A stretch of 33,801 nucleotides of DNA from a virus (Duplodnaviria > Caudoviricetes). Shown one piece after another: positions 128 to 25,715 of this stretch. The stretch spans positions 1 through 33,801 of the IMG/VR virus record IMGVR_UViG_3300049486_000043; one strand, written 5' to 3'. The notes beneath the pieces were generated by a model. The model was not told where the DNA came from, ran no database searches, and saw only the letters and a list, made by a program, of their open reading frames with translations. How positions within the stretch are numbered: position 1 is the stretch's first letter; each line of letters starts with the position of its first letter. The position numbers and the translations under genes are program-made.

Positions 128-407
128 TTTTGCGATCGCGAGTGATGCTGTGATGCTGAGCTCGAATCAACGAGTTCATCATGCGAGCTGACATCTCGAC
201 CTTGCCTTTCACGTAGTAAAGACCTCCGCCTAAAGCTTGGCGAGGATCAACGTTTAAAGACTTAGCTGTTTCGACTATTGCGAATATTCCTTCCGCGCCC
301 ATCTTGGCGTAGTGAGGTGTTTTCATCAGCATTTGGCAAAGCTGCTGTGTATTTTGCAACTCTGTCATTACCGATGATGGTGTACTTTTCATAACTTCGT
401 TATTCAT
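1..407 (-). CDS. RecT/Redbeta-like single-strand annealing protein, 5' part (continues at 33674..33266; about 271 aa in total)
   Basis: Missed by the ORF track. ATG at 407 after AGGAG; manual translation MNNEVMKSTP...LNVDPRQALGGGLYYVKGKVEMSARMMNSLIR...FSLEDAKRAGL..VWKNF continues in frame across the junction; lies upstream of a YqaJ exonuclease. Confidence 0.85.
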   Translation of the reverse strand, partial: MNNEVMKSTPSSVMTELQNTQQLCQMLMKTPHYAKMGAEGIFAIVETAKSLNVDPRQALGGGLYYVKGKVEMSARMMNSLIRAQHHSITRDRKSDDTICILHGKRADNGDTWTESFSLEDAKRAGLTNSPVWKNF

Positions 408-418
408 GTGGTTTTCTC

Positions 419-745
419 CTATTGTGTAGCTGTGGCTTGCGCTCTACTGAGGGCAACACCGAGGTTAAACAAGTGATCTGAAAATTCAGGGGTCCTTTTC
501 TTAAGAATCGGTTGTCCCGCAGGCAGCTTCAAATCAAACTGACCGCAAATTTCGTCTAAACAATCTTCTAATTTGGCAACATCGCCAGTCACATAGACCG
601 CTTCAATAACTCCAGTCAAAAAGTCACGAACACTGTCTAAATCTGGGATATCGTCTTCATGAACCCAGCCGTAATCGGCTGGTGATTCAGGTTCTGGGTC
701 TGGATCGTACCAAGAATCCGGGGGTCCGTAATCGCAATACGCCAT
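419..745 (-). CDS. Hypothetical acidic protein
   Basis: ORF track 419..757; probable ATG at 745 after GGAGG; tightly packed in the leftward operon. Confidence 0.7.
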   Translation of the reverse strand: MAYCDYGPPDSWYDPDPEPESPADYGWVHEDDIPDLDSVRDFLTGVIEAVYVTGDVAKLEDCLDEICGQFDLKLPAGQPILKKRTPEFSDHLFNLGVALSRAQATATQ

Positions 746-747
746 GA

Positions 748-1026
748 CTACCTCCATACCGTTGAGTGTTTTAGAATCTCAACACGGTAGGAACCGCGAA
801 ACGCCATGCTTGTTTTAATTTCGATTGGAATAAAACGGGTTTTTTGCTCAAGATCGCGAATTTCTTCAGCAGATATTGAGTCCATCTGGCAAACTAAATC
901 AAAATAAATATTATCTTGATCGGCACCTTTAAAAATGAAGTGACAGCTAGGGGCTTCATACCGTGCAACGGACTGAGCCTCTTTAACTTCTTGATCGATT
1001 AGCTTGAGGATTCTCGCGCTTATCAT
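748..1026 (-). CDS. Hypothetical protein, first gene of the leftward operon
   Basis: ATG at 1026 preceded by AAGGAGAAAACCAC; no HTH or peptidase motif visible. Confidence 0.7.
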   Translation of the reverse strand: MISARILKLIDQEVKEAQSVARYEAPSCHFIFKGADQDNIYFDLVCQMDSISAEEIRDLEQKTRFIPIEIKTSMAFRGSYRVEILKHSTVWR

Positions 1027-1123
1027 GTGGTTTTCTCCTTCGTGTAGCAAGTTCTTAGCTCATGATGCATGATATTACCTATTCCGAGGTAAGCTACAGT
1101 GGCACCTATCGCTTTATGTACAT

Positions 1124-1153
1124 ATCTTACACTGGAGTGATATTTCCGGTCAA
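1124..1153 (-). promoter_or_regulatory. Putative sigma70-type leftward early promoter
   Basis: Minus strand TTGACC-N18-TAAGAT in the divergent intergenic region. Confidence 0.55.
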
Positions 1154-1245
1154 GTGGAATTACCTTTTTTTTTCATAGCGTCAAAATTCCGGTTAAGATA
1201 TTTTGGAATAATAAACTTTAAGATCACACAAAAGGATACACTACA

Positions 1246-1530
1246 GTGGAACTTGACTACTACCTGTTTAAGAGCAAAAGGACTCAGAAGGAATTCGCGG
1301 AAAAGATAGACATGTTGCCGCATTCACTATCATTTATCGTGAATGGGAAGAAAGCTCCGAATTTGTATCACGCAATGCAAATTCATTATGAGAGCGGCGG
1401 TAAGGTTACACTCTTTGACCTTTTAAAGCCAGATGAAAAGGAAAAACTTGATAAAAAATATGGCATCTTAAAGAAGGAATGTGTATACAGGAAAGACATG
1501 CCAACTGAGGAAGATAATGCCTCAGGATAA
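1246..1530 (+). CDS. Cro-like XRE helix-turn-helix regulator
   Basis: TQKEFAEKIDMLPHSLSFIVNGKKAP HTH and IHYESGGKVTLFDL tail; first gene of the rightward operon; GTG start after AGGA. Confidence 0.85.
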   Translation: MELDYYLFKSKRTQKEFAEKIDMLPHSLSFIVNGKKAPNLYHAMQIHYESGGKVTLFDLLKPDEKEKLDKKYGILKKECVYRKDMPTEEDNASG

Positions 1531-1537
1531 AAAAGAC

Positions 1538-1619
1538 GAGGGTCTCCCCAAACCACTAGTTCGACCCTCTGGGCTACACGCAGGAGAACTCCCCCTTTAT
1601 AAGGGGCGTTCTGCTGTGA
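1538..1619 (+). promoter_or_regulatory. Two-box RNA element copy (hairpin with AAACCAC loop, GCTACACGC, second long hairpin)
   Basis: GAGGGTC/GACCCTC stem (1538-1544/1563-1569), AAACCAC 1550-1556, GCTACACGC 1573-1581, then AGAAC..CCCCTT-TAT-AAGGGG..GTTCT stem. Confidence 0.6.
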
Positions 1620-1761
1620 GATGTACTGAATTTAACATAGGTAACACTTTCAAGCTACACATTTCTCGTAAAAATGTGAGGCTAAATAAAATAGGCTCTT
1701 ACACAAAGACCAAAAATTGAAACCTTTAGCAATGAATCATAAAAAAAAGAAAAACCTCGTC

Positions 1762-1833
1762 TATGACTCACAGACAAAAGGGATGCTTCCTGTTATGACG
1801 CACAACAAAAAAGGAAATTTTCTGTTATGACTC
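1762..1833. repeat. Three direct repeats TATGAC(T/G)C at 32-bp spacing
   Basis: TATGAC at 1762, 1794 and 1826 with partly similar spacers (CAAAA..GG...CTGT). Confidence 0.75.
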
Positions 1834-1951
1834 GGCTACATTATATCAGGTCTATCTTTTTCCGCCACACTTTTTTAGACAAAGAGTGTTCAAGTCCCTA
1901 CACCCCAGTGTATGCGGACCTCTACGTAAATTTAAACTCAGGTATCACGAA

Positions 1952-2164
1952 ATGAATAAACAAGGATTCTTCCTGCCATACGACCTTATTGAAAAAATTG
2001 GGTGCACCGCCGCTATGAAACTAGCAATGTTTCACTATCAAAAAACCCCCATGGGGAGACACACACTATCAAAGCTCATCCGAGAAGGATATCTCCTCAA
2101 AGGAGAAGAACGAGTGACTATCGCTCCTCACGTGATAGAACTTTTCGCCCAAGGTAAGGAGTAA
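1952..2164 (+). CDS. Hypothetical protein upstream of the initiator
   Basis: ORF track 1886..2164 (GTG); ATG at 1952 is the more plausible start; may be a small winged-helix-like protein. Confidence 0.55.
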   Translation: MNKQGFFLPYDLIEKIGCTAAMKLAMFHYQKTPMGRHTLSKLIREGYLLKGEERVTIAPHVIELFAQGKE

Positions 2165-2168
2165 AAAG

Positions 2169-3080
2169 ATGACTAGAGACACACTCTTTTGGCTCTACGC
2201 TGACAACTATCGGACGTACAACGTACACGTCGCAAGAAAACTGGGATCTATATACGCGGCGATACTCCTATCCGAGATCGCCAGCAGGTATAAATACCAC
2301 AAAGAAAAACATGAATTGGAAATTGACTCTGAAGGCAACGGCTGGTTCTACTTTACTCAGGAAGAGATAGAGCGACGAACCACCATGAGTCGTAAGCAAC
2401 AAGATACAGCATTAGAAATTTTGGTGTCAAAGGGATTGATCGAAAAAAAAGTGATGGGTCTTCCAGCTAAACGATTCTTCAGATTGAAAGCTGACGAAAT
2501 CAATAAGTTTTTTGAAGAAGAAAGCGAGGGTGATGACCAAACAGGGGTACAAACTAGTTTGTCCAAAACGGACAAACTGGATTGTCCGAAAGGTACAAAC
2601 TGGTCTGACCAAAAAGGGCAAACTGCTCATATATATAAAGAACCTAAAGAAGAACCTCATAAAGTATCTATATCGGCTGGCGCCGAAAGAGAGAGAGAGA
2701 GGTTGGTTTTACCCCCCATTGGTCTTAAAAAGACCTACGGCGAGCTGAATCTTGTCAAACTCAAGGACGAAGAGCACGCGAAGCTCATTGAGAGGTTCGG
2801 CGCTGACCAAACCAAAGTGCTCATCGACAGGCTCGACCTCTATCTCGGACAGAAAGGCGACAAGTACAAGAGCCACTACGCAACAATTCTTGCGTGGATC
2901 GAGCGCGACAAGAGCGACGCCAAGAAAGACGAAGCCTCACCAGTAGCTAAACACCGTCAGGGATCAAAGCTTGCCTTCGAGAAGGAAAAAGACACGTGGA
3001 AGCCACCAGCTCCAGAGAAGAAAGTCTACACCGATGAGGAGAAAGAGAAGCTCTTCAAAGAATACGGAGTCCGTTTATGA
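2169..3080 (+). CDS. Phage replication initiator (lambda O / DnaD-like replisome organiser)
   Basis: N-terminal wHTH (GWFYFTQEEIERRT...KGLIEKKVMGLPAKRFF), central iteron-coded linker, C-terminal KYKSHYATILAW motif; followed by a DnaC-like gene. Confidence 0.85.
   Translation: MTRDTLFWLYADNYRTYNVHVARKLGSIYAAILLSEIASRYKYHKEKHELEIDSEGNGWFYFTQEEIERRTTMSRKQQDTALEILVSKGLIEKKVMGLPAKRFFRLKADEINKFFEEESEGDDQTGVQTSLSKTDKLDCPKGTNWSDQKGQTAHIYKEPKEEPHKVSISAGAERERERLVLPPIGLKKTYGELNLVKLKDEEHAKLIERFGADQTKVLIDRLDLYLGQKGDKYKSHYATILAWIERDKSDAKKDEASPVAKHRQGSKLAFEKEKDTWKPPAPEKKVYTDEEKEKLFKEYGVRL
2534..2665. repeat. Probable replication origin: four 23-bp iterons plus AT-rich tract within the initiator gene
   Basis: CAAACT cores at 2550, 2573, 2596 and 2619, each preceded by G(A/T)CC(A/G)AA; followed by CATATATATAAAG and two AAGAACCT copies. 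Confidence 0.8.
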
Positions 3081-3637
3081 GCTGGGAAGACTTCTGCAAG
3101 CTAAACAACGTCGGCGTACGCTTCCAGAACGCGCAGATAGGACGAGCAGAAAAGCTGCCTAATGAAATCGTCACCAGTGGACTTGCTTGGTGTCAAAAGC
3201 CGCATAGCCTCGTATTGCATGGACCGGCAGGAAGAGGGAAAACATACCTGACTCACTGCCTCATAAGAGAAGCTATCCGTCGTTTCGGTCTATGTGCCGT
3301 CCGGTGGATAAAGTCCAAAGCTTTAGACGACAGGATCTTAAAAGATTTCAACCAATACGGAGACTCGAGCTACCTGATAAAAACTTTCATTGAAGTACCA
3401 ATTTTGTTTATAGACGACTTCGGTGTTGATAGGTCCTCTGAAAGAACGGAAAGAGACTATTACGAGCTGATTGATGCTAGATGGGAGAACATGAGCCCAA
3501 CCGTGATTACTACGAACTTGACGCCCGAGTTGCTAGAAGAAAAGTATGGTTCGAGGATTTTTTCACGGCTAAAAGATTCTAAATGGATCAGCTTTAACGG
3601 ATTACCAGATTTAAGAGGAGAAAATATATGCCACTAA
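3077..3637 (+). CDS. DnaC/IstB-like AAA+ helicase loader
   Basis: Walker A GPAGRGKT, Walker B ILFIDDFG, ITTN sensor and RIFSRL motif. Confidence 0.9.
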   Translation: MSWEDFCKLNNVGVRFQNAQIGRAEKLPNEIVTSGLAWCQKPHSLVLHGPAGRGKTYLTHCLIREAIRRFGLCAVRWIKSKALDDRILKDFNQYGDSSYLIKTFIEVPILFIDDFGVDRSSERTERDYYELIDARWENMSPTVITTNLTPELLEEKYGSRIFSRLKDSKWISFNGLPDLRGENICH

Positions 3638-3942
3638 TAGTTTTGCAGGAAGCAATAGAGCAGGTGTACGGAAACTTGGACAGATTTGATTTCGGAGAGA
3701 TGCTACGTGTCTCGAGGGAAGCGATAGGACTTAAACAATTTAAAGCGTCTGAATTCTTGGGGATTGCTCCCGCTCGGCTCAAGAACTTGGAGACCGGATA
3801 CTTTCGGTCAATGCCAAGTGAAGCTGAGATGCAAGCGATATCAAGGCTTTACGATATTCAATACGGCATCGTCCACGAGAAGGCAAAGTCTCATGTCGAC
3901 GAACATACAAAAGCTAAAAAGGTAAGGATGCATGATGAGTAA
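3628..3942 (+). CDS. XRE-family HTH protein
   Basis: LRVSREAIGLKQFKASEFLGIAPARLKNLETG pattern. Confidence 0.75.
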   Translation: MPLIVLQEAIEQVYGNLDRFDFGEMLRVSREAIGLKQFKASEFLGIAPARLKNLETGYFRSMPSEAEMQAISRLYDIQYGIVHEKAKSHVDEHTKAKKVRMHDE

Positions 3943-4183
3943 GACATGTAACATCTGCTACGAGGAGAAGCCTCTTGAGCAATTTTACATACAAAAGGGT
4001 AAACCGATGTGTCGATGCAAGGATTGTCAGCGAATGTATGCTCGCAAGTGGCATCAACTTAACAAGTTAAAGATGATGGAAACTCGGGCTAAGTTTCACA
4101 ATTCAAGATACAGAACTAAAAAAATGGCAGAAAAACAGGCGATGGAGTTCAAAAGTGCAAGCACAAGAACCGAGGAGACCTGA
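3932..4183 (+). CDS. Small zinc-finger protein
   Basis: KTCNICYEEKPLEQFY...CRCKDC, like the N-terminal Zn ribbon of phage HNH/EndoVII proteins; no nuclease domain follows. Confidence 0.7.
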   Translation: MMSKTCNICYEEKPLEQFYIQKGKPMCRCKDCQRMYARKWHQLNKLKMMETRAKFHNSRYRTKKMAEKQAMEFKSASTRTEET

Positions 4184-4724
4184 TGAAATCATTGACGATG
4201 AGATGTTCGAAAGAGAGTTCGATCGAATGCTTCGGGAGTTTCTCTTGCCAAGAGAATACGCGGTCCTCCAGCTCAGGTTCTGGGAAGAGCTTACTCTTCG
4301 AGAAGCCGGTAAAAGACTTGGGATTTCTCAAGAGAGGATCAGGCAAATTGAGCTCAAAGCCCTTCGCAAAATGCGGCATCCAAGCCGGGTTAAGGAGCTT
4401 ATGAAACTAGGCGGCTTAGTAGATCAAGTGAGGAGATGGTGGAATGGTGAGTCAACAGAAAAGACTTTTAATTCACCTATGGAATTCCCCCATGATGACA
4501 ATCAAGTTGTTCTTACTAAACGACCTAACGTTACAGAAATTGACCCAGATGGACCGGTTCCGGACTTCGTAGTGATCGAAAGATGGGACTCAGAAAGCCC
4601 GCCATACTTGGCGATTAGGGTCGGTGAGCTTGGGAAGTTTCCTCCATTGACGATGGACCAGTACAACAAATGGCTTAAAGAAGCTTTAGAGAGAGAGCAA
4701 GATGCACTTGGTTATTCAAAGTAA
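4155..4724 (+). CDS. Protein containing sigma70 region 4 only
   Basis: LLPREYAVLQLRF..LTLREAGKRLGISQERIRQIELKALRKMRHPSR closely follows RpoD region 4.2; no region 2 is visible. Confidence 0.8.
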   Translation: MQAQEPRRPDEIIDDEMFEREFDRMLREFLLPREYAVLQLRFWEELTLREAGKRLGISQERIRQIELKALRKMRHPSRVKELMKLGGLVDQVRRWWNGESTEKTFNSPMEFPHDDNQVVLTKRPNVTEIDPDGPVPDFVVIERWDSESPPYLAIRVGELGKFPPLTMDQYNKWLKEALEREQDALGYSK

Positions 4725-5307
4725 GCCGCAAGCGCAAGCGAGGCATAGACACCGATTTCAAGGTGGGCGCGTTATAACGTTTGATCCCGATAGTCGCGAT
4801 AAAAAAGCGTGCCAATCCCTGGTCGTTTCGCAAATGCGTCTAAAACGCACAGAAATGCTCCCAGAAACGCCGATCGCGATGGAGTTGATAAACTATACCA
4901 AGATACCCGAATCGTGGTCTAAACGGCGTCAAAATGAGGCGGAAGGCAAACCGTGTATTGTGCGTCCTGATTTGGATAACTACATTAAGTTTTACGGCGA
5001 TGTATTGAATGGCATCGCGTTTCATGACGATCGGCAGATAACATCGATCTGGTCAGAGAAACTTTATTCTGGTAATCCTAGAGTAGAGATAATTTTAAAA
5101 CCTTATGGGGTCAATATGATTAGTGAACATGCGATAACCATAAAGGGCGAAATCAACTTAGAAGACTTAAATTACATGGTTAAAAAAGCAAATCGCCTTG
5201 GCATGCAAAACAGACAGATAGTGCGAGTCTACTCGCAAGAAGACGACGAAGGAAGACACATTTATTTCGAAGCCGAGGCAATAAAAAGCTATGCAGACGC
5301 TGAGTAA
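4702..5307 (+). CDS. rusA: RusA-family Holliday junction resolvase with C-terminal extension
   Basis: KPQAQARHR start, RPDLDNYIKFYGDVLNGIAFHDDRQI catalytic motif, KLYSGNPRVEI. Confidence 0.9.
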   Translation: MHLVIQSKPQAQARHRHRFQGGRVITFDPDSRDKKACQSLVVSQMRLKRTEMLPETPIAMELINYTKIPESWSKRRQNEAEGKPCIVRPDLDNYIKFYGDVLNGIAFHDDRQITSIWSEKLYSGNPRVEIILKPYGVNMISEHAITIKGEINLEDLNYMVKKANRLGMQNRQIVRVYSQEDDEGRHIYFEAEAIKSYADAE

Positions 5308-5563
5308 TATGATGACTGAGTATCGATTTGAGCTTCCTTTTCGACCAAATGACAACGTTGTTCTCTTGGTCAGCAATGGGAAGATGGCAGGAATTGCAGC
5401 ACCTAGCGAGAAATATGCGAGAAGCCACGCCGACAAAATACACGAGCTTATGATTTTGGTTATGAAACAACCAAACACAAAGTCAGGTGTCTGGATTTTC
5501 CGGATAAGTGACAACTGGAAGACCGTATACGGAGAGCTGATCGCAACAAAGGAGGAAAAGTGA
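5291..5563 (+). CDS. Hypothetical protein
   Basis: ORF track; packed in operon. Confidence 0.6.
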   Translation: MQTLSNMMTEYRFELPFRPNDNVVLLVSNGKMAGIAAPSEKYARSHADKIHELMILVMKQPNTKSGVWIFRISDNWKTVYGELIATKEEK

Positions 5564-5772
5564 AGTACCAATTAACCATCGAAGGCGACTTTTACGAAGA
5601 TTGGGAAGAGCTCAAGCAGTTTGTCCATGCAAGAGACGCTATCTCGGCTATGTGGGAAGCCCGGCAGAAACTAAGAACTCAGCTTAAACATGGTGACTTT
5701 GAAGATGAAAAGGTCATTAGATTTTTAGAGGAATTACAAGATTTATTATACGTTGCAGCATTGGAGGATTAA
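5560..5772 (+). CDS. Hypothetical protein
   Basis: GTG start after GGAGG, GTGA overlap with the previous stop. Confidence 0.7.
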   Translation: MKYQLTIEGDFYEDWEELKQFVHARDAISAMWEARQKLRTQLKHGDFEDEKVIRFLEELQDLLYVAALED

Positions 5773-5966
5773 TGAACAAACATTTAGAGATTGCATATCA
5801 ACACTTGGTTAATGGACTCAATACATTTGAAGTCAATTCGCCTCAATGGAAGTTTTGCCTAACATCGTTGATTGGCTATGGCGGTATGGTACACGAACTT
5901 ACCGTATCGGACGATGACGACGACGGCGAGTGCGATCTATGCGCGAGGTGCCAATGCAGTTCATGA
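5772..5966 (+). CDS. Hypothetical protein
   Basis: TAATG coupling and GGAGG RBS. Confidence 0.65.
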   Translation: MNKHLEIAYQHLVNGLNTFEVNSPQWKFCLTSLIGYGGMVHELTVSDDDDDGECDLCARCQCSS

Positions 5967-6268
5967 CATGCACGACATGTCAACGCGTTGTCCAGCTTAA
6001 CAACACTGGAATTTGTTTGGGATGCCAACGAGGTTTCCCAAACATGGATGCCGAAGACGTGTACAAGCCGCCTGTAAAAACAGATAAAGAGCTTGAAATT
6101 GAGAAACTTAAAACAAGAGAAAAGGAGTTGGAAGATGCCATTAACAAAGGGTTACAGCAAGAAGACAATCAGCAAGAACATAAAGAAGGAAATGGAGAGC
6201 GGCAAGCCTCAGAAGCAAGCAGTGGCAATCGCACTCAACGTCGCAAAAGACGCCAAAAAGAAGGCTAA
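5954..6268 (+). CDS. Hypothetical protein with N-terminal CxxC..CxxC and coiled coil
   Basis: ATG at 5954 after GAGG; CTTC...CLGC. Confidence 0.6.
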   Translation: MQFMTCTTCQRVVQLNNTGICLGCQRGFPNMDAEDVYKPPVKTDKELEIEKLKTREKELEDAINKGLQQEDNQQEHKEGNGERQASEASSGNRTQRRKRRQKEG

Positions 6269-6278
6269 GAAAAAATAA
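6135..6278 (+). CDS. Small Lys-rich phage protein (MPL.KG.S...KQAVAIAL type)
   Basis: ATG at 6135 after AAGGAG; MPLTKGYSKKTISKNIKKEMESGKPQKQAVAIALNVA, a pattern I recognise from phage small proteins. Confidence 0.75.
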   Translation: MPLTKGYSKKTISKNIKKEMESGKPQKQAVAIALNVAKDAKKKAKKK

Positions 6279-6288
6279 AGGAGAAAAC

Positions 6289-6606
6289 ATGAGCATTGAA
6301 TGCATGAAATACAAGCCGGTAAACAAAGGCGTTCTGCTTGGATATGCCGATATTTACGTACCAAAGATGGGACTTGAAATCTACGGATGCTCCTTCTTTC
6401 AAAAAGATGGTCGCCGTTGGATAAACTTTCCCTCGAAGGAATACAAAAATGATCTTGGCGAGACCAAGTACGCTTCGATCGTGAGATTCCGCGAGGCAAG
6501 CCATATGGAAGCTTTTACCGAAGCATGTAAAAAAGCCATTGAGAAAAAGTGCGCAGAAACACAACCGGTACAGCAAAGCCATGAAGAAGAGGAACTCCCT
6601 TTCTGA
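6289..6606 (+). CDS. SpoVG-like nucleic-acid-binding protein with SSB-like acidic tail
   Basis: LGYADI...GLEIYGC...KDGRRWINFPSKEY pattern and C-terminal EEEELPF. Confidence 0.65.
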   Translation: MSIECMKYKPVNKGVLLGYADIYVPKMGLEIYGCSFFQKDGRRWINFPSKEYKNDLGETKYASIVRFREASHMEAFTEACKKAIEKKCAETQPVQQSHEEEELPF

Positions 6607-6914
6607 TGGATAATGAAAGAATGAGGGCATTAGCGCATATGGAACAAGACAGCTTAGCTTTAGGATGTGGCGAATGGTGTGCAAACCTTTATGACTCCTC
6701 CGGCAATGTCGTTCTTTGCGCTTGTGGAGCTCCAGCAGGTTGCGCAGTTATGGGAAAACACTCGATGTTAGCGTGGTGCGAAAAATGCTCACCAGTTGAA
6801 AAGCACGAAGCAAAGATGGTTTATAAGCCGCCTTTAGAAATAGATAATTATATTAAAGACAATTGGATTATTAATCTTGAAGAAACAAAAGAAAACATTG
6901 GAACAACTGATTAA
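6606..6914 (+). CDS. Hypothetical Cys-containing protein
   Basis: TGATG coupling; CACG...CEKC. Confidence 0.6.
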   Translation: MDNERMRALAHMEQDSLALGCGEWCANLYDSSGNVVLCACGAPAGCAVMGKHSMLAWCEKCSPVEKHEAKMVYKPPLEIDNYIKDNWIINLEETKENIGTTD

Positions 6915-7188
6915 TGAGTTCTTAGATGTATGGGATTGCAAACAACAAATAGCGTTTTTGCGAGACATCATACCTTTATTTGAGCTCTACGACGTTGAAG
7001 ACGAAGACGATTGGGTCAAAAATGCTGTCGGCGAAGAGGATGAAAGAAACGTACGATTGGTTCGTACAGTTTATTTAATTTCAAGAATTGCCGAGTTCCA
7101 CGCTGGTAAGCTTTGCTCAATCAAGATGAACTTTAAGGATCTATGGCAAAAAATGGAAAAGCAAAATATCGAATCGAATAAGGCATGA
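6877..7188 (+). CDS. Hypothetical protein
   Basis: ORF track, TTG start; fills the operon gap. Confidence 0.6.
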   Translation: MKKQKKTLEQLINEFLDVWDCKQQIAFLRDIIPLFELYDVEDEDDWVKNAVGEEDERNVRLVRTVYLISRIAEFHAGKLCSIKMNFKDLWQKMEKQNIESNKA

Positions 7189-7304
7189 CTAAGAAGAAGT
7201 ATTACAAAAAGAACCATAGGGATTGTCCATGCTGTGGATGGCAAGGTCACGTTAGGTTGAATACTAGAAAATGGTTAGGACATAAGAATGGAATGGATCA
7301 ATAG
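7185..7304 (+). CDS. Small basic Cys-containing protein (39 aa)
   Basis: Below the ORF-track cutoff; ATGA overlap; MTKKKYYKKNHRDCPCCGWQGHVRLNTRKWLGHKNGMDQ. Confidence 0.5.
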   Translation: MTKKKYYKKNHRDCPCCGWQGHVRLNTRKWLGHKNGMDQ

Positions 7305-7506
7305 AGAGACTGAATTTCCTGATTGCGATTGGATTCTTTGTTGCGCTGGAGACAAGGTTTTTATCTGCGAATTAGTGGAAAGCAAGTGGGGGAACCGTTA
7401 TCACTCGACTGATTGGGGGCATGGAGAATTTCAGGATATGCCCGAGTGGACTCATTGGATGCCTCTTCCCAAACCATACAAGGAAAAACCATGCGATGGT
7501 TCATAG
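7288..7506 (+). CDS. DUF551-like protein
   Basis: MEWI....P start and THWMPLPKP end. Confidence 0.8.
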   Translation: MEWINRETEFPDCDWILCCAGDKVFICELVESKWGNRYHSTDWGHGEFQDMPEWTHWMPLPKPYKEKPCDGS

Positions 7507-7994
7507 CGGATACACACTTCAATCATGCTAATGTCATAGTTTATGATAAGCGACCTTTTAAAGATGTAATTGAGATGGAGAACGAAATTGTACGTAGATG
7601 GAATTCAAGTATTAAACATGACGATGTCGTGTATCACCTTGGTGATTTTGCTTTCGGTTCTATCCAATTACAACATGAAATACTTAGCAAGCTCAACGGA
7701 CAAAAAATACTCATCAGGGGAAATCACGATGGATCTGAGAATAGGTGTAAAAAGTCGGGTTGGCATTTCGTCTGTGACGGAATTCTCTTGGCTATTGGTG
7801 GATTTACTGTTTGCCTTAGTCATGATCCTTCTGTGGTTCCTAAGGATTTTATGCTTTTGCATGGTCACACTCATAAGCATTCCGATAGACCTAACGGTAT
7901 TTGCGTCTCTTGCAATTTGTGGAATTATAGCCCAGTCAGTGAAAAAACTATTATCAACAAACTCAAAGGAGTAAAAAATGATTTATGCAGTTAA
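7491..7994 (+). CDS. Calcineurin-like metallophosphoesterase
   Basis: ATG at 7491 after AGGA; ADTHFNH, HLGDF, GNHD, SHDP and HGHTH motifs. Confidence 0.9.
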   Translation: MRWFIADTHFNHANVIVYDKRPFKDVIEMENEIVRRWNSSIKHDDVVYHLGDFAFGSIQLQHEILSKLNGQKILIRGNHDGSENRCKKSGWHFVCDGILLAIGGFTVCLSHDPSVVPKDFMLLHGHTHKHSDRPNGICVSCNLWNYSPVSEKTIINKLKGVKNDLCS

Positions 7995-8256
7995 ATTCGT
8001 ATACAATGATGGAAAAGATCTTCTCTGCAATGTAGCAGAAGAAAATATCGGTCTTTTCTTTGCCAATATTAATCAAAAACAAGTGTTTTATGATGAAAAG
8101 AATAATGTTGGATTCTGGACCGATATAAGTACGGTTCGTTATATAGAATTAAGAAAAATAGAAGACAAGGGGGATCAAAATGCTAAGCCAGAGGCAGAAG
8201 CAGGCTCTAACGCAATACCAATTGATCAGGGAATCCCTGAATCGCCAGCGGTCTAA
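7978..8256 (+). CDS. Hypothetical protein
   Basis: AAGGAG RBS; ORF track. Confidence 0.7.
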   Translation: MIYAVKFVYNDGKDLLCNVAEENIGLFFANINQKQVFYDEKNNVGFWTDISTVRYIELRKIEDKGDQNAKPEAEAGSNAIPIDQGIPESPAV

Positions 8257-8440
8257 GCTTGACGATCAGGAAAACGAGGCTTTTAAAGCCCTAATCGAAC
8301 AGCTTAAAGATGACGAAAGCCCGCCTACAGAAAAAACACTAGGCGAAACGCTCAAAGGGTTGTTCTATTCAGGCAAAGGCAAAACGAAGTTTTGCTTTAC
8401 TCGGAGTGCAACGCCCGAGCGTGATTGCGGCATACCGTAA
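8180..8440 (+). CDS. Hypothetical protein (N-terminal coiled coil)
   Basis: AAGGGGG RBS; ORF track. Confidence 0.55.
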   Translation: MLSQRQKQALTQYQLIRESLNRQRSKLDDQENEAFKALIEQLKDDESPPTEKTLGETLKGLFYSGKGKTKFCFTRSATPERDCGIP

Positions 8441-8470
8441 GGTTTTGCGACCAATGCCGCGCTTTTTAAC

Positions 8471-8503
8471 GCCCAAACCACATTAGGGCATAACGCTACA
8501 AGC
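8471..8503 (+). promoter_or_regulatory. Two-box RNA element copy upstream of the packaging module
   Basis: GCCC-AAACCACATTA-GGGC hairpin, then GCTACAAGC directly before the AGGA RBS of the gene at 8513. Confidence 0.6.
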
Positions 8504-8512
8504 AGGATTAAA

Positions 8513-8701
8513 ATGAGTAAAGAACTTACTATAATTCTTAAAGATACGGAAAGAACGTATCGCCAAAAGTTCCTCGTCTACGAGGATATCCAGTTGATCC
8601 CAGAAGATCCAACGATTGTTTCATGTATTGAACAAGCTCGAAAAAACTTTAATGGTGAACCGGAAGATATTCAAATCCGAGTTCTCCTAGTGGTGAGGTG
8701 A
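8513..8701 (+). CDS. Hypothetical protein
   Basis: AGGA RBS; ORF track. Confidence 0.7.
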   Translation: MSKELTIILKDTERTYRQKFLVYEDIQLIPEDPTIVSCIEQARKNFNGEPEDIQIRVLLVVR

Positions 8702-8703
8702 TT

Positions 8704-9099
8704 ATGGCGGAAGGCAAACCGGGAAGAGCAAAGCTTCAAGTAGATTGGGATATTGTAGACGTCCATCTTGAGGCTCACTGTACTGGCACTCAAATAGCCG
8801 GAGTGCTAGGAATGTGCGCTGAAACGCTATACATTCGTTGTCGAGAAGACAAGGGTATGACGTTTGAGGAGTACATGTACTCGAAAAGAGACAAAGGGAA
8901 GGCACATGTCAAACACAAGCAGTACGAGGAAGCTCTCAAGGGAGACCGCGGAATGCTTGTATGGCTTGGCAAAAACTGGCTAGACCAAAAAGATAATCAC
9001 GACGTGAATGTGACAGGCTCAATGAGCGTTGCGGTTGTAAATTATGGCGACGATCCAGAACCAAAGCCATATGAAAACGATCAGGAAGAGGAAAAATAA
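8704..9099 (+). CDS. Putative terminase small subunit
   Basis: N-terminal HTH (CTGTQIAGVLGMCAETLY), MLVWLGKNWLDQKD motif, position upstream of the large subunit. Confidence 0.7.
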   Translation: MAEGKPGRAKLQVDWDIVDVHLEAHCTGTQIAGVLGMCAETLYIRCREDKGMTFEEYMYSKRDKGKAHVKHKQYEEALKGDRGMLVWLGKNWLDQKDNHDVNVTGSMSVAVVNYGDDPEPKPYENDQEEEK

Positions 9100-9344
9100 T
9101 GAGTGGTGAATGTGACATGTGTGGCGAGCACACGCTTGATTGCGAGTGCAATAAAGAAAGTGTGACTTGTAGTCCAACGGAACTTCGGGATAAATGTAAT
9201 AACATTAATCATTTGCTAACGTGTCTTTTGATTATTCTTCAGGGAGACGAATATAGAGCCTATAATGGATCTCCACATCTAACTTTAATTTTAGATATTC
9301 ATGAAAAAGTCAAAGAGATCGAAGAAAAACTGAGGCGTATTTAA
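9099..9344 (+). CDS. Hypothetical protein with Cys/His N-terminus
   Basis: MSGECDMCGEHTLDCEC; TAATG coupling at both ends. Confidence 0.65.
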   Translation: MSGECDMCGEHTLDCECNKESVTCSPTELRDKCNNINHLLTCLLIILQGDEYRAYNGSPHLTLILDIHEKVKEIEEKLRRI

Positions 9345-10660
9345 TGGTTGATCTTGTCATCCCAAACTTTAAGCCGCGTCCATACCAGTTGCCATTTCTA
9401 AAGGCGATGGATAATGGATGCAAGAGAGCTGTACTTGTGTGGCATCGGCGAGCTGGCAAGGAAATTGCATGCTGGAACTACATGATTAAGCAAGCTTTTT
9501 GGCATAGAAAAGGGACTTACGTTTATTTCTTTCCTACTTCTACCCTAGGAAGAAGAATTCTTTGGGATGGAGCCAACAAAGACGGCAAGAGATTCATCGA
9601 TTATATCCCAAAAGAGATAATTGATGGTCAGCCTAATAGTGTTGAGATGAAAATAAAGCTTAAAAACGGATCAATTATCCAAATTATGGGTTCTGATCAG
9701 ATAATCAACGTCGGTATTAACCCTGTTGGTTGCGTTTTCTCTGAATTTTCACTCCAAGATCCAAAAACGTGGGCATTTACCAGACCTATCTTGAGAGAAA
9801 ACGGTGGGTGGGCAATCTTTAACTTTACACCAAGAGGTAAGAATCACGCCTATGACCTTTATCTTATGGGAAAAAACAATAAAGACTGGTTTGTTTCAAA
9901 GCTTGGCGTTGATGATACCAATGTCCTAACTCCTGAGGACATTGACGCGGAACGAAACGAAGGGATGTCAGAGCATCTTATTCAGCAAGAGTACTATTGC
10001 TCGTTCGATCAAGGTGTCGAGGGTGCGTACTACGCTAAACTATTGAACCGTGCCGAATTAGATGGAAGAATTACTTGTGTTCCAGCAGACCCACACGCTG
10101 CCGTAAATACTTACTGGGATTTAGGTGTGGGAGACGAAACAGTCATACTCTTCGCACAAAATTGCGGACAAGAAATACATTTAATTGATATGTATCGTAA
10201 TCAAGGTGAAGGATTGAACCACTATGCAAGAATTCTTAAGGAAAAAGCTTCCGCAAATGACTGGAATTATGGTGAGCATTTTGCTCCTCACGACATTCAA
10301 GTTAGAGAGCTTGGATCAGGAGCTCAAACTCGATTAGATATTGCGCGGGATCTTGGTATTAAGTTCTTAATAGTGCCGAATTTACCTATAGGTGAAGGGA
10401 TAGAATTAGCTCGTGGTATTTTCCATAGACTGTGGATAGACTCAAAAAACTGCAATTATTTTATTAAAGCAGCGGAAAATTACCATAAGCATTACAACGA
10501 AAAGCTTAACGTTTACAGTGAACGACCTGTACATGATTGGTCATCTCATACTATGGACGCCTTTAGATATATGGCGATCATGGTGAACAAGAGAAGATCA
10601 GCTGGAATGACGGAAGCTGAAGCGGAAAGATTGCAAAGGCAATACCAATTTAGGTATTAA
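9344..10660 (+). CDS. terL: Terminase large subunit
   Basis: PRPYQ, WHRRAGK Walker A, CVFSE Walker B, FTPRG coupling motif, YWDLG and HDWSSHTMDAFRY nuclease motifs. Confidence 0.95.
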   Translation: MVDLVIPNFKPRPYQLPFLKAMDNGCKRAVLVWHRRAGKEIACWNYMIKQAFWHRKGTYVYFFPTSTLGRRILWDGANKDGKRFIDYIPKEIIDGQPNSVEMKIKLKNGSIIQIMGSDQIINVGINPVGCVFSEFSLQDPKTWAFTRPILRENGGWAIFNFTPRGKNHAYDLYLMGKNNKDWFVSKLGVDDTNVLTPEDIDAERNEGMSEHLIQQEYYCSFDQGVEGAYYAKLLNRAELDGRITCVPADPHAAVNTYWDLGVGDETVILFAQNCGQEIHLIDMYRNQGEGLNHYARILKEKASANDWNYGEHFAPHDIQVRELGSGAQTRLDIARDLGIKFLIVPNLPIGEGIELARGIFHRLWIDSKNCNYFIKAAENYHKHYNEKLNVYSERPVHDWSSHTMDAFRYMAIMVNKRRSAGMTEAEAERLQRQYQFRY

Positions 10661-10710
10661 GTTGCAAATGAAATGTTTTTTAGATACTGTTTTAGAAAAA
10701 GGAATATATC

Positions 10711-10842
10711 ATGAAAAAGAAGGCAGCTCCAGCCAAAAAAGCCAAGAAATCTATGGCATCTGGTCTTAAAAAAGCAGATAAAATGGATTACGGCAAAGTA
10801 AAGTCTCAAAAAGGCTTAAAAAATATTAAAGAGCCATGCTAA
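10711..10842 (+). CDS. Small Lys/Ala-rich basic protein (43 aa)
   Basis: Below the ORF-track cutoff; AAGGA RBS; MKKKAAPAKKAKKSMASGLKKADKMDYGKVKSQKGLKNIKEPC. Confidence 0.65.
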   Translation: MKKKAAPAKKAKKSMASGLKKADKMDYGKVKSQKGLKNIKEPC

Positions 10843-10867
10843 ATGGCGAATAAGTAATAGATAAGAA

Positions 10868-10987
10868 AACCCTCAAACCACAATAGGGTTACATGGCTAC
10901 ACGCGGGGCAGTGACTGATCATCACGTTCGTTGCCGAATCAACGGCTCCGCACTTTTCTCATTCGGGAGAAATATAAAACCGAGTGC
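10868..10987 (+). ncRNA. Candidate structured RNA / leader upstream of portal (includes a two-box element)
   Basis: AACCCT-CAAACCACAAT-AGGGTT hairpin; GCTACAC; three-way junction closed by GCGGGGC/GCTCCGC; TTTCTC/GAGAAA hairpin. Confidence 0.5.
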
Positions 10988-10996
10988 AGGGGTGCG

Positions 10997-13096
10997 ATGT
11001 CACGAGATTTGGCGATTGTCAATGAATACAATGACTTCTACGAAGAAGCATATTACGCTTGGAACCCATTTTATCCACTAGCGGATAGAGACTTACGTTT
11101 CTATTTAGGGGATCAATGGGACGCGAAAGAGCGTCAAAAACTCTTTCAAGAAGGGCGTAATGCGTTCGTCTTCAATAGAGCTCGCCGTAATATCAACATG
11201 GTTACGGGCTATCAGCGGCAACACCGTCTGAGTAGCGTCGTTTCGCCCGTTGAAAATTCCGATCAGGAAACCGCTGATCAACTCACCCAACTACTTCTTT
11301 ATGTGATGCAATCATCAGATGGCTATCGCGTCATCTCGGATTGCTTTGGTGGTGCCTGCAAAACCGGCTGGAATTTGATGACTCTGTACATGGATTACAG
11401 AGACGACCCAATCAATGGAGACATCAAGTTTGGCAGAGAGCCATATTCCGGTTTTATCACAGATCCCTATTTTACAAATTTAGACTTCTCGGACTGTTCC
11501 TACATCATACGCAGAAAATACCTATCGGTTGATCAAGCAGCATCAATGTTGCCGGGAATGGAAAAGGAAGTATTTAAGGTTCATGGCTTTGGGTGGTCAA
11601 GAGACGATAAGTTCACGTGGCTTCCCTACCAACAGCAACCAAACGGTCAAGACCTAATCGCATTCAACGAATTCTATCGTCAAAAGTGGAAAAACGTTCC
11701 CACTTTAGTAGACATGGAGACGGGAGAGTTCCTTGAATGGGATGGAGACCAAGATCGCCTTGAGCTTTTCAGAAGCATGTATCCCAATATGGAAGTGATC
11801 AAGCGTCCAAAACGCTACATCGAAAAGCATATCATTCTCAATGACCAATATATGAAGACAGAGGTCAATCCATATGGGCTTGACGAGTACCCATTTGTGC
11901 CTTTTGTGGGTTATTTCGAGCCAGAATCTGACTTTTGGGAATTGAAAGTCCAATCATTGATGAGATGCCAAATCGATCCGCAAAAAGAGGCAAACCGCCG
12001 CAGATCTCAGATGATCGATATTTTCGACTCACAAATCAACTCAGGATACATTGCCGATGAAGACTCTGTCATCAATCCTCGCTCACTCTTTCAAACTTCC
12101 CAAGGAAAAGTCATCTGGAGAAAAAAAGACGCTAAACCCGGAGCCGTCGAAAAGATCCCACCCGGACAAGTGCCACCCTCAATGTTCCAACTGCAAGAGC
12201 TGTTCGACCGAGACATGCAAGAAATCCTCGGAATCAATGACGCCGCATTCGGAATAGCCGACTCAGGTAATGAGTCTGGAATCATGATGATGCTTCGTCA
12301 GGGAGCCACGATCACCAATCTGCAAGACGTCTTTGACAATCTTCGATTCTCGCAAAGAGCCGTTAGCAAAAAAGTTCTTAAATTGATCCAGACATGGACT
12401 CCACAAAAGATTGAAAGAATTATTCGTCAAAAGCCTACACAGCAGTTCTACGACAAGGAATTTACAAAATACGATGTCGCTGTACAAGAAGGAATGTTGA
12501 CCGATACACAAAAACAAATCTACTTCAGACAGCTTGTGGATTTAAAACAGCTTACCGATGCGCCTTCACAAGGACCTATCACAGCGGAAATGCTTGTAGA
12601 AGCTGCTCCAATTCAAGGAAAAACAACCCTTCAGAAGCAAATTTCACAAAACGAACAATCTCGCATGGAAGCTGCTCAGAAACAGGCTCAAGCCCAACAA
12701 AGCATGCTCAAGATGCAAGAACAAGCTGTCACAGCCAAAGCAATATCCGATATTGCGTTGTCAAAGGAAAGATTCACAAGATCAGTTGCAAATATGGGTC
12801 TGGAAGACGAAAGAGCTGCAAGAGCCGTTCAAGACAGATCACAAGCTGCTCTCAACAACGTGAAAGCAGCTGCGGAAATACAGGGAATGACACAAGACCA
12901 GTTATTGAAGTCATTCCAAATCGTCAAGCTTATGGAAGAGCTAGCACATGCAAAAGAAGAGCAGGTGAAAGAAGACGATGTAAACATTTCTGCAAGAGCG
13001 GAACAAGCAGCAATGCCGCAAATGCAGGAAATCCCCGGGGGTCAACAGATCCTTGGGAAACCAATGAACAATATGTCGGAGGTGCCAAATGGCTAA
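10997..13096 (+). CDS. Portal protein (P22-like, long C-terminal coiled-coil barrel)
   Basis: ATG at 10997; DLRFYLGDQW, FNRARRNINMVTGYQR, YPFVPF, IDPQKEANRRRSQ, SGI...LRQ motifs; Q/A-rich tail; downstream of terL. Confidence 0.92.
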   Translation: MSRDLAIVNEYNDFYEEAYYAWNPFYPLADRDLRFYLGDQWDAKERQKLFQEGRNAFVFNRARRNINMVTGYQRQHRLSSVVSPVENSDQETADQLTQLLLYVMQSSDGYRVISDCFGGACKTGWNLMTLYMDYRDDPINGDIKFGREPYSGFITDPYFTNLDFSDCSYIIRRKYLSVDQAASMLPGMEKEVFKVHGFGWSRDDKFTWLPYQQQPNGQDLIAFNEFYRQKWKNVPTLVDMETGEFLEWDGDQDRLELFRSMYPNMEVIKRPKRYIEKHIILNDQYMKTEVNPYGLDEYPFVPFVGYFEPESDFWELKVQSLMRCQIDPQKEANRRRSQMIDIFDSQINSGYIADEDSVINPRSLFQTSQGKVIWRKKDAKPGAVEKIPPGQVPPSMFQLQELFDRDMQEILGINDAAFGIADSGNESGIMMMLRQGATITNLQDVFDNLRFSQRAVSKKVLKLIQTWTPQKIERIIRQKPTQQFYDKEFTKYDVAVQEGMLTDTQKQIYFRQLVDLKQLTDAPSQGPITAEMLVEAAPIQGKTTLQKQISQNEQSRMEAAQKQAQAQQSMLKMQEQAVTAKAISDIALSKERFTRSVANMGLEDERAARAVQDRSQAALNNVKAAAEIQGMTQDQLLKSFQIVKLMEELAHAKEEQVKEDDVNISARAEQAAMPQMQEIPGGQQILGKPMNNMSEVPNG

Positions 13097-13310
13097 AAAA
13101 AGTATGCCGAAAGGAATGCCCTACGCTGCCAGAGATGGTAACGAGAAATTCCGCGGGAAAATGTCTGGTCGTATGGCTGAAGTAATGGGACATGCAAGTC
13201 CTGTCTACAGCATCGACACGAATGCCGAAGCTTACGATATGGGACGCGTAAAACCTATGAAACAAGGTTCTCGTGGATACCCTGAGCAAGCTTGGGAATA
13301 TCAATACTAG
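13089..13310 (+). CDS. Hypothetical protein
   Basis: GGAGG RBS; ORF track. Confidence 0.7.
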   Translation: MAKKSMPKGMPYAARDGNEKFRGKMSGRMAEVMGHASPVYSIDTNAEAYDMGRVKPMKQGSRGYPEQAWEYQY

Positions 13311-13322
13311 GGTAGGTAAAAA

Positions 13323-13694
13323 ATGAAGCAAGAGACTGGGGAAACCCGCAACGCAATAATGGAAGACGTGCAAAAGCGCCTAGAGCAGATCTTAGCTGCC
13401 AATAAGAATCGCAAAGAGCCTTATTGGGTCGTTCTGTTTGCAAAGCCGTTCAAAGGATGCGTGGAAGGGAAGCCCACACTTGTTCAACACGTCAAAGCTT
13501 ACCCTAACCGACCTGCATCGCAAGTCGGGATGATCACTGGGAAAGTTGACAACTCAACGGGACAAATCCAATGGGAAGTCAATATGCCTCAGAGACCATT
13601 TGACTTTGACGCGCTCCAGTTGTTTGGAGCAAAGCCCTGTAATGAAGTGGTCACAGAAACCACGACTATTCCGGGAGCTTACGTAACACAATAG
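13323..13694 (+). CDS. Hypothetical protein
   Basis: ORF track; in head operon. Confidence 0.75.
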   Translation: MKQETGETRNAIMEDVQKRLEQILAANKNRKEPYWVVLFAKPFKGCVEGKPTLVQHVKAYPNRPASQVGMITGKVDNSTGQIQWEVNMPQRPFDFDALQLFGAKPCNEVVTETTTIPGAYVTQ

Positions 13695-13822
13695 TGCCGC
13701 CGGCATTGGCTAAACCACCCCAGTAATGGGAGCCAAATCGGGCGTAAACCTTAAGGAGCTACACGCGATGAGCGAAGACCAACACGTTTCGGGCGAACAA
13801 GTATCGAGTGCCGCCGACTCGG
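13692..13822 (+). promoter_or_regulatory. Structured leader of the scaffold gene (two-box element plus duplicated GCCGCCG / TCGGGCG motifs)
   Basis: TTGGCT/AGCCAA stem enclosing AAACCAC and a CCCA-GTAA-TGGG GNRA hairpin; GCTACACGC between the RBS and ATG; AGTGCCGCCG twice and TCGGGCG twice. Confidence 0.6.
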
Positions 13823-24959: not shown

Positions 24960-25715
24960 ATGGCAAATTTTAACCCACTTGGCTACACGGGAAAGGTCCC
25001 AGCTAGCTTAACACGTCTTGGCGTGTGTCAATTCAATCCAGTCGATTTTTCAGTTAGCGAAGACGGTGTCGTTTCGCTTGGCGGAACAGGAGCAGTACAA
25101 ACAATTAACTCGCTTCTTCCAACAGCTGGAAACATTGTGATTGCAGGTACAGCATTACAAATTACGGTATCAAATGCCGGTTCGACGGTAACGTTATCTC
25201 TACCAGCAGCTATAACAACTCCCGGATCGTTGACAACTACATCAACTCTCGGAGCTGGAACATCTTTATCAGCTGGTACGACAATTACCGCAGGTACAGG
25301 AATAACCTCTATTACAGGAAACATTGTTGCAACTGCTGGAAACGTCACAGCTGGCGCAGCAATGTCGGCTACAACTACTGTAACTGCCGGAACAGATTTA
25401 GTCTCGACAGCAGGTAACGTTTTAATCCAAGGGGCTGCTAAGCAATTACGCGTAGAAGGCGGCGCCGTCACTGACTTTATCGGACAAGCAACGCTAGTAG
25501 CTGGAACAGCAACTATTGCAAATACGAATATTGCCGCTGGGGACAGAGTTTTTGTATCCAGAAGCGATGTAAACGGTTCAACCGCTCTTGGTGTATTTGA
25601 TATCTCAATTACTCCAGCAACATCGTTTACAATCGATGCAAGAAACCCAACTGATGCAACAGTTCAAACAAATGATGTGTCTATCGTTGATTACTTCATC
25701 GTGCGTCAACTTTAA
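24960..25715 (+). CDS. Fibre-like virion protein
   Basis: T/A/G-rich ~6-residue repeats (TAGTGI, TAGTDL) suggesting a beta helix; GQATLVAGTATIAN tip domain. Confidence 0.7.
   Translation: MANFNPLGYTGKVPASLTRLGVCQFNPVDFSVSEDGVVSLGGTGAVQTINSLLPTAGNIVIAGTALQITVSNAGSTVTLSLPAAITTPGSLTTTSTLGAGTSLSAGTTITAGTGITSITGNIVATAGNVTAGAAMSATTTVTAGTDLVSTAGNVLIQGAAKQLRVEGGAVTDFIGQATLVAGTATIANTNIAAGDRVFVSRSDVNGSTALGVFDISITPATSFTIDARNPTDATVQTNDVSIVDYFIVRQL

Follow-up and report, generated by a model that had tools for sequence, protein, structure and literature searches.

Here, we describe a two-box element in a tailed-phage genome and the small RNA with which it may pair. The stretch analysed, called the window throughout, is the whole of the 33,801-nt IMG/VR record IMGVR_UViG_3300049486_000043, a complete 33.8-kb virus genome with direct terminal repeats of 127 nt. 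The element consists of AAACCAC (box A) and GCTACAC (box B) and is present in six copies. We consider it probable that the copy behind cro is the gene of a leftward small RNA of ~95 nt and that the remaining five copies mark the mRNAs that it is predicted to target, the translation of which would be shut off.

Box A lies at +1550, +8475, +10875, +13712, -1033 and -414, and box B, GCTACAC(GC), at +1573, +10896, +13758, -1048 and -430, with GCTACAAGC at +8495. The two boxes are spaced 20-46 nt apart and their order is reversed in the minus-strand copies. All six copies, as well as the four plus-strand stems, agree with an initial annotation made from the sequence. The pair AAACCAC + GCTACA, with box B 7-55 nt after or 7-35 nt before box A, occurred six times, whereas 300 dinucleotide shuffles averaged 0.063 pairs and never contained more than 1; the significance of this enrichment is overstated, since the motif was picked after the sequence had been viewed. 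The element is kept in relatives: of 30 related records, 11 contained the pattern RAACCAC-N3-30-ACACG, with 21 matches in total compared with 4 for the reversed control pattern, and relatives carry it at the same places with different stem sequences. An Rfam search, proposed earlier as a check, yielded no match for the element in the window (only mir-1306 at E 1.1) or in relatives (only a tRNA in five related loci). A MAFFT alignment of the terminator described below left 3 consensus pairs, and the covariance model derived from it was significant for the window only. A collection-wide scan with the box pattern was set aside, as each of the 80 loci listed held a single match. Another box-B word with a near-box-A is found at 24960-24990 (plus strand), in the first codons of a tail gene, and may reflect coding constraint; in G002, G003 and G007, full box targets stand ahead of a long late open reading frame (ORF).

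The element was initially assigned to six gene leaders, which holds for five copies, whereas the copy at 1538-1581 heads no gene: it is followed by no protein-family match or substantial ORF before 1886/1951, and the AGGAGAA there leads to none. Because the window contains no separate complement to both boxes beyond the antisense of the copies themselves, we read this copy on the minus strand. An A run precedes it on the plus strand; read on the minus strand, the copy forms a GC-rich hairpin followed by a U tail. The loop and the linker of the minus strand are complementary to box A and box B, respectively, and the linker complement is extended by one to the Shine-Dalgarno (SD) sequence. The predicted parts are as follows.

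1528..1622, minus strand: predicted small RNA of ~95 nt with a putative 5' end (fold of -35.6 kcal/mol; same architecture in relatives)
1538..1569, minus strand: terminator hairpin, whose loop GUGGUUU (1550-1556) is complementary to box A (terminator-like site called on this strand)
1528..1537, minus strand: U-rich terminator tail, up to the cro stop codon (from the sequence)
1572..1588, minus strand: linker seed complementary to box B, with an anti-SD extension partly inside the 5' hairpin (duplexes of -20.5 to -27.8 kcal/mol)
1586..1611, minus strand: 5' hairpin of the predicted RNA (from the fold and relatives)
1629..1637, minus strand: candidate extended -10 promoter TGnTAAATT (in the part retained by close strains)

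Another promoter candidate, at 1763-1736, was rejected because it lies inside a stretch that is replaced in close strains (1704-1792 is swapped for 106-135 other letters in two of them). Upstream of the predicted RNA, a second anti-box-B word occurs within a hairpin at 1654-1685 (minus strand), and a second minus-strand terminator lies at 1755-1779 with a TATAAT upstream of it (1836-1841); together, these features might represent a longer RNA or a second antisense RNA.

The terminator-like anatomy of the minus strand recurs in related phages. We compared 27 hairpins, comprising 25 chosen among 80 scanned YqaJ loci together with those of the window and G003; before counting, we left out L288, in which TGG lies in the stem, and near-duplicates such as L321. 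All 27 loci show a 5' hairpin and a linker ahead of a terminator whose loop has TGG, the TGG being a selection criterion. Terminator stems are diverse, with four to six pair types at each of the outer seven positions. When isolated non-Watson-Crick stem positions are read on the minus strand, 13 are G-U, none A-C and 4 other, and among the 13 hairpins first found by the plus-strand box the ratio of G-U to A-C is 9:0. This count was used in place of raw G-U counts per strand (43 vs 4), which we discarded because the box's G/U-rich complement yields the same bias; it is present as well in 67 automatically collected box-A hairpins (86 vs 36). The minus strand is more stable in 23 of the 27 hairpins, and the 10-nt tail contains on average 7.1 U compared with 1.4 on the opposite strand, in a set of which 25 came from a U-tail-filtered list. 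At the sequence level, the post-cro copy is selected as a minus-strand terminator. Of 45 sufficiently long loci that carry the leftward gene, 29 have a TGG-loop terminator when near-duplicates are counted; 8 further loci were too short. Further terminator cases are G031, G033, G022, G004 and G019. The last of these (L259:4390-4470, minus strand) is a permuted variant of the predicted RNA with seeds in the 5' loop, the linker and the terminator loop, each of which is matched in the left leader and two also in the portal leader.

Seeds and boxes covary from phage to phage. Box A is AAACCAC in the window, GAACCAC in G001, G002, G007, G009, G011, G014, G017 and G018, ATACCAC in G003, GCACCAC in G006, G010 and G012, and GCACCAT in G015, and box B also differs between phages. 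Within one genome the copies change together: AACCAC with AACACG occurs seven times in G002, six times in G007 and never in the window, and in G003 the loop and six sites have all changed to ATACCAC. Because the boxes are phage-specific and concerted within a genome, a co-evolving partner is needed. In 21 of 24 phages, the first leftward start codon has the exact complement of that phage's loop 6-mer no more than ~15 nt away (3 of the 27 have no defined leader, and 3 leaders were hand-anchored on the box), compared with a permutation mean of 7.0 and maximum of 15, so that none of 100,000 permutations reached 21. For the 7-mer, 15 of 24 matched (permutation mean 3.4; 0/100,000 as high), and each of the five loop types is matched by its own leftward-start box. 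Two-site pairing of each predicted RNA with the left-operon region of the same phage had a mean energy of -31.9, compared with -25.9 ± 0.6 after permutation and -24.3 for the opposite strand, the sense strand being better in 25 of 27. In L301 and L316, the linker is matched over up to 14 nt, in a sequence unlike that of the window, and in G004, G022 and G033 the match extends over the SD. Loose genome scans that allowed wobble pairs were dropped as noise.

In the window, the predicted targets of the small RNA are the following.

1024..1048, minus strand: first leftward gene (748-1026), in the order box B, SD, box A, AUG (from the sequence and duplex energy)
405..430, minus strand: RecT-like gene (start 407, running through the terminal repeat), in the same order
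8471..8515, plus strand: ORF 8513, the first gene ahead of terS/terL, with box A in a 4-bp hairpin and box B against the SD
10868..10908, plus strand: portal gene, with box A in a hairpin and box B overlapping the 5' arm of the leader junction
13706..13770, plus strand: scaffold-like gene, with box A in a hairpin and box B between the SD and the AUG (13768)

Predicted duplexes between the linker region and these five targets range from -20.5 to -27.8 kcal/mol, and those of the loop from -9.6 to -11.6. The SD of both leftward genes and of ORF 8513 lies within these predicted duplexes, as does the SD-AUG spacer of the scaffold gene, the start of which is most likely 13768, as in relatives. The five targets rank 1-5 among 57 window starts in a ranking that is not independent of the boxes. 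The leftward copies form no hairpin, and their boxes bracket the SD. At the portal gene, the AUG (10997) lies ~95 nt beyond box B and the ribosome-binding site (RBS) is predicted to be buried by default, while box A is held unpaired in a loop in 13 of 14 box-bearing portal leaders. Late targets are missing or partial in several genomes, and six or seven exact box pairs are present in G007 and G002. Box A of the scaffold gene is provided by a hairpin inserted upstream or is encoded within codons 3-6. The scaffold leader (13694-13818, plus strand) also shows GCCGCC...GGGCG before the SD and GGGCG...GCCGCC in the first codons (21 genomes); these paired words are possibly an autoregulatory site or switch.

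Several results weigh against a repressing small RNA. Pairing at targets in which the SD lies between box B and box A would require its two helices to be made in crossed order. Freeing box B in the portal leader leaves predicted RBS access unchanged (mean -0.01 in 11 leaders). No clean promoter peak for the small RNA emerged, and the window alone folds equally on both strands (minus -35.6 vs plus -35.0; z -2.2 vs -3.4). A TGG-loop terminator is lacking in 16 of the 45 leftward-gene loci. Cognate pairing ranked first in only 10 of 27 phages, the window being 12th and L306, L333 and L357 at 18-26. Target deviations were not enriched in rate for wobble-keeping changes (25/525 vs 6/149, p 0.83), and the higher share of transitions among them (25/41 vs 6/21, p 0.03) was noticed post hoc. 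Finally, shared ancestry inflates the permutation statistics given above.

Under the proposed mechanism, the small RNA would be transcribed from ~1622 to 1528, perhaps from the extended -10 at 1629-1637. Its terminator loop would kiss box A first, which late leaders would expose in a short hairpin, and the linker would then zip over box B and the SD with no need for Hfq. The effect would be repression, by direct occlusion of the SD or start at four targets and indirectly at the portal gene. The leftward recombination operon would be the conserved core target, to which some lineages may add late targets in terminase-region, portal, scaffold, capsid and tail leaders. In addition, the small RNA would be antisense over its full length to the rightward transcript continuing from cro, and this overlap could damp the replication genes or titrate the RNA. 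The RNA might either hold a persistent unintegrated state or time the lytic cycle, which the sequence does not separate. The former is possible because no S24 (CI-type) peptidase was found in any of the 22 records searched, and integrases are scarce: a tyrosine integrase was detected in 2 of the 22 (1 above the cut-off) and a resolvase in 5, and the search of the window found none of the three.

The initial annotation had proposed an RNA regulatory system whose six copies follow the direction of transcription and are all bound by one RNA-binding factor. The system itself stands, as a genome-wide, RNA-level element that is selected in relatives and most likely exerts translational control. The single reader is not supported: in the post-cro copy, selection acts on a terminator of the other strand, and the boxes differ widely between phages and track the post-cro element. 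As to the factors suggested, homologues of the SpoVG-like protein (6289..6606) occur in 18 of 20 relatives irrespective of box type; 3 of 17 family members matched SpoVG, no solved structure matched, and in G016 the gene sits in the recombination operon. The protein (6289-6606, plus strand) ends in an acidic EEELPF tail, which we take to be typical of single-stranded DNA-binding proteins, and is likely one of them. The Lys-rich ORF 10711 is a 43-aa late peptide. It is similarly improbable that a phage protein with phage-specific recognition uses the boxes as translational operators and the post-cro copy as a plus-strand site or decoy. A co-evolving protein would equally produce concerted change within a genome, and the identity of the post-cro copy with the targets, the late copies presenting box A in a loop closed by varying stems (13/14 portal leaders) and the equally good plus-strand fold of the window element would all suit it. 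However, it would account poorly for the minus-strand G-U bias (13:0) with its U tails, for box B spanning unrelated sequences up to 14 nt and for leftward copies that lack a hairpin; moreover, no window gene is confined to box-sharing genomes, although small fast-evolving genes could escape such a comparison.

The small RNA might instead pair with the boxes but activate late genes, act on termination or RNA stability, or matter only at the left operon. The buried portal RBS, with box B ~95 nt upstream beside a conserved structure, and the absent or partial late targets of several genomes would be in line with this, which we nevertheless regard as unlikely, given that the predicted duplex lies over the SD or the SD-AUG spacer at four of the five window targets and that three of those have no inhibitory structure to open. 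Nut-like antitermination, in which a hairpin and box would load a modified RNA polymerase behind cro and wherever a module begins, is highly improbable. The first copy is followed by a hairpin, and its position is presumably that of lambda nutR, but the following hairpin usually has no plus-strand U run, and leftward copies that straddle the SD and AUG without a hairpin do not conform to a sense-strand hairpin-plus-box away from the RBS. The leftward early proteins are not Arg-rich, and no antiterminator family was matched among the 56 window proteins (PHROG, Pfam), N proteins being small and fast-diverging. The boxes are short exact repeats that may resemble conserved host RNAs. They might act at the DNA level, as halves of promoters or operators, or correspond to a host 16S rRNA, tRNA or similar RNA, which we find hardly credible: the 20-46-nt spacing, the reversed order and the compensatory stems argue against DNA sites or a host RNA, and a fixed host RNA cannot follow boxes that change between phages. 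We retain a repressing small RNA as the preferred explanation.

Other features bear on the targets and their surroundings.

10903..10953, plus strand: separate conserved portal-leader structure of two hairpins with a predicted three-way junction (two-sided changes at 9/9 predicted pairs in 15 sequences)
419..745, minus strand: conserved acidic leftward protein, the first leftward gene and box-bearing target in most relatives
1246..1530, plus strand: Cro-like helix-turn-helix gene (PHROG transcription-regulator matches at E 8e-4 to 3e-3; HTH_3 under the cut-off)

The portal-leader junction, which covaries and has the loop CUGAUCA, is followed by an anti-RBS hairpin; it is present also in box-less phages and has no Rfam match. 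For the leftward protein at 419..745, fold searches of PDB and BFVD found nothing at E<=0.001, and no GenBank phage matched it. Repeated ATTCCG-type words between the divergent genes (1135-1200) are possible Cro operators. An ORF at 7413-7994 (plus strand) overlaps ORF 7570-7974 in a different frame and contains the motifs DTH, GD, GNHD and HGH, which we take to be metallophosphoesterase-like.

Window proteins matched in PHROG and Pfam include a P22-like portal, terminase, capsid, O-like and DnaC-like replication proteins, RusA and the Cro-like protein, and the leftward operon is of the RecT/YqaJ type. Capsid relatives are numerous, at 65-91% identity among the best 80 of 102, and all GenBank phage capsids fall below 60% identity to that of the window. 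We took 20 related records whole, each sharing <=30% with the window DNA by blastn. A close capsid was found in four GTDB contigs, one in a Chlamydiae metagenome-assembled genome (MAG) and three in unrelated bins, the latter probably mis-binned. In the phylum of that MAG, 12 of 401 genomes have a capsid match, among them G205, in which a 223-kb contig (C4, ~208.6-212.3 kb; L368, L369) carries a broken capsid gene (74-75%) and terminase remnants that adjoin the housekeeping genes for malate dehydrogenase and citrate synthase. A homologue of the leftward protein (59% identity) carries the label Candidatus Rhabdochlamydia. The host of the close phage family is likely an environmental chlamydia (Chlamydiota), an assignment that we do not extend to the more distant YqaJ loci.

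It is possible, if doubtful, that the small RNA is an RNA-only master repressor in tailed phages of environmental chlamydiae without CI and mostly without integrases, silencing recombination and morphogenesis in trans, being titrated by the convergent cro transcript, defining immunity groups by its seed set and maintaining the phage unintegrated. The proposed regulon would span the early and late modules of the phage's own genome in genomes without a recognisable CI, whereas the phage antisense RNAs in the literature consulted act on a single operon or on host genes. Seeds re-tuned from phage to phage would provide natural orthogonal RNA-target sets. Our results also suggest that tailed phages of environmental chlamydiae make up a sizeable family, and point to a possible form of phage gene regulation in hosts that lack Hfq. 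Searches of the open-access literature gave no description of such an RNA, and subscription papers or the supplementary motif lists of large structured-RNA screens (e.g., PMC8040213) could contain it.

Chlamydia itself is described as lacking Hfq, and its IhtA RNA represses independently of Hfq through a 7-nt loop seed that blocks the start region (PMC4355289 and PMC9426522). IhtA differs from the predicted RNA in being a host RNA of three stem-loops, with its seed in loop 1, CAUGGCG as target and a dispensable terminator loop, as outlined in PMC4355289. The phage RNA predicted here has two hairpins, with one seed in the linker and the other in the terminator loop; in C4 of phages P1 and P7, both seeds are in loops. 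C4 controls an antirepressor operon, whereas no antirepressor was found among the 56 window proteins, and the targets are recT, portal, scaffold and two ORFs of no assigned function. PMC5320573 describes C4 as an RNA of three stem-loops that RNase P releases from a longer transcript, and the seeds of which, a' and b', pair with two target boxes, one over the RBS and one conferring phage specificity. In sequence, the predicted RNA resembles it in two phage-specific seeds complementary to two boxes, one of them at the RBS. However, the predicted RNA would be a separate gene antisense behind cro with targets spread over the early-left and late modules, and it has no match to the Rfam C4 covariance models. 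The CI RNA of P4, according to PMC4825925, also acts via two complementary sites, but is processed from its target transcript, with termination at flanking seqA/seqC. Control through two complementary sites is thus shared. P4 CI is encoded between its two target sites in one transcript, whereas the window targets are RBSs 0.5-12 kb away on both strands. OOP of lambdoid phages is transcribed leftward and has its own terminator. Like the predicted RNA, it is a small antisense RNA of the cro-replication region (PMC12197685). OOP is cis-antisense to cII; here, in contrast, no family-matched ORF overlaps 1531-1622, and targets in trans covary. By analogy, the predicted RNA would work like the C4 and P4 CI antisense RNAs and is placed like OOP, yet is a member of none of these groups.

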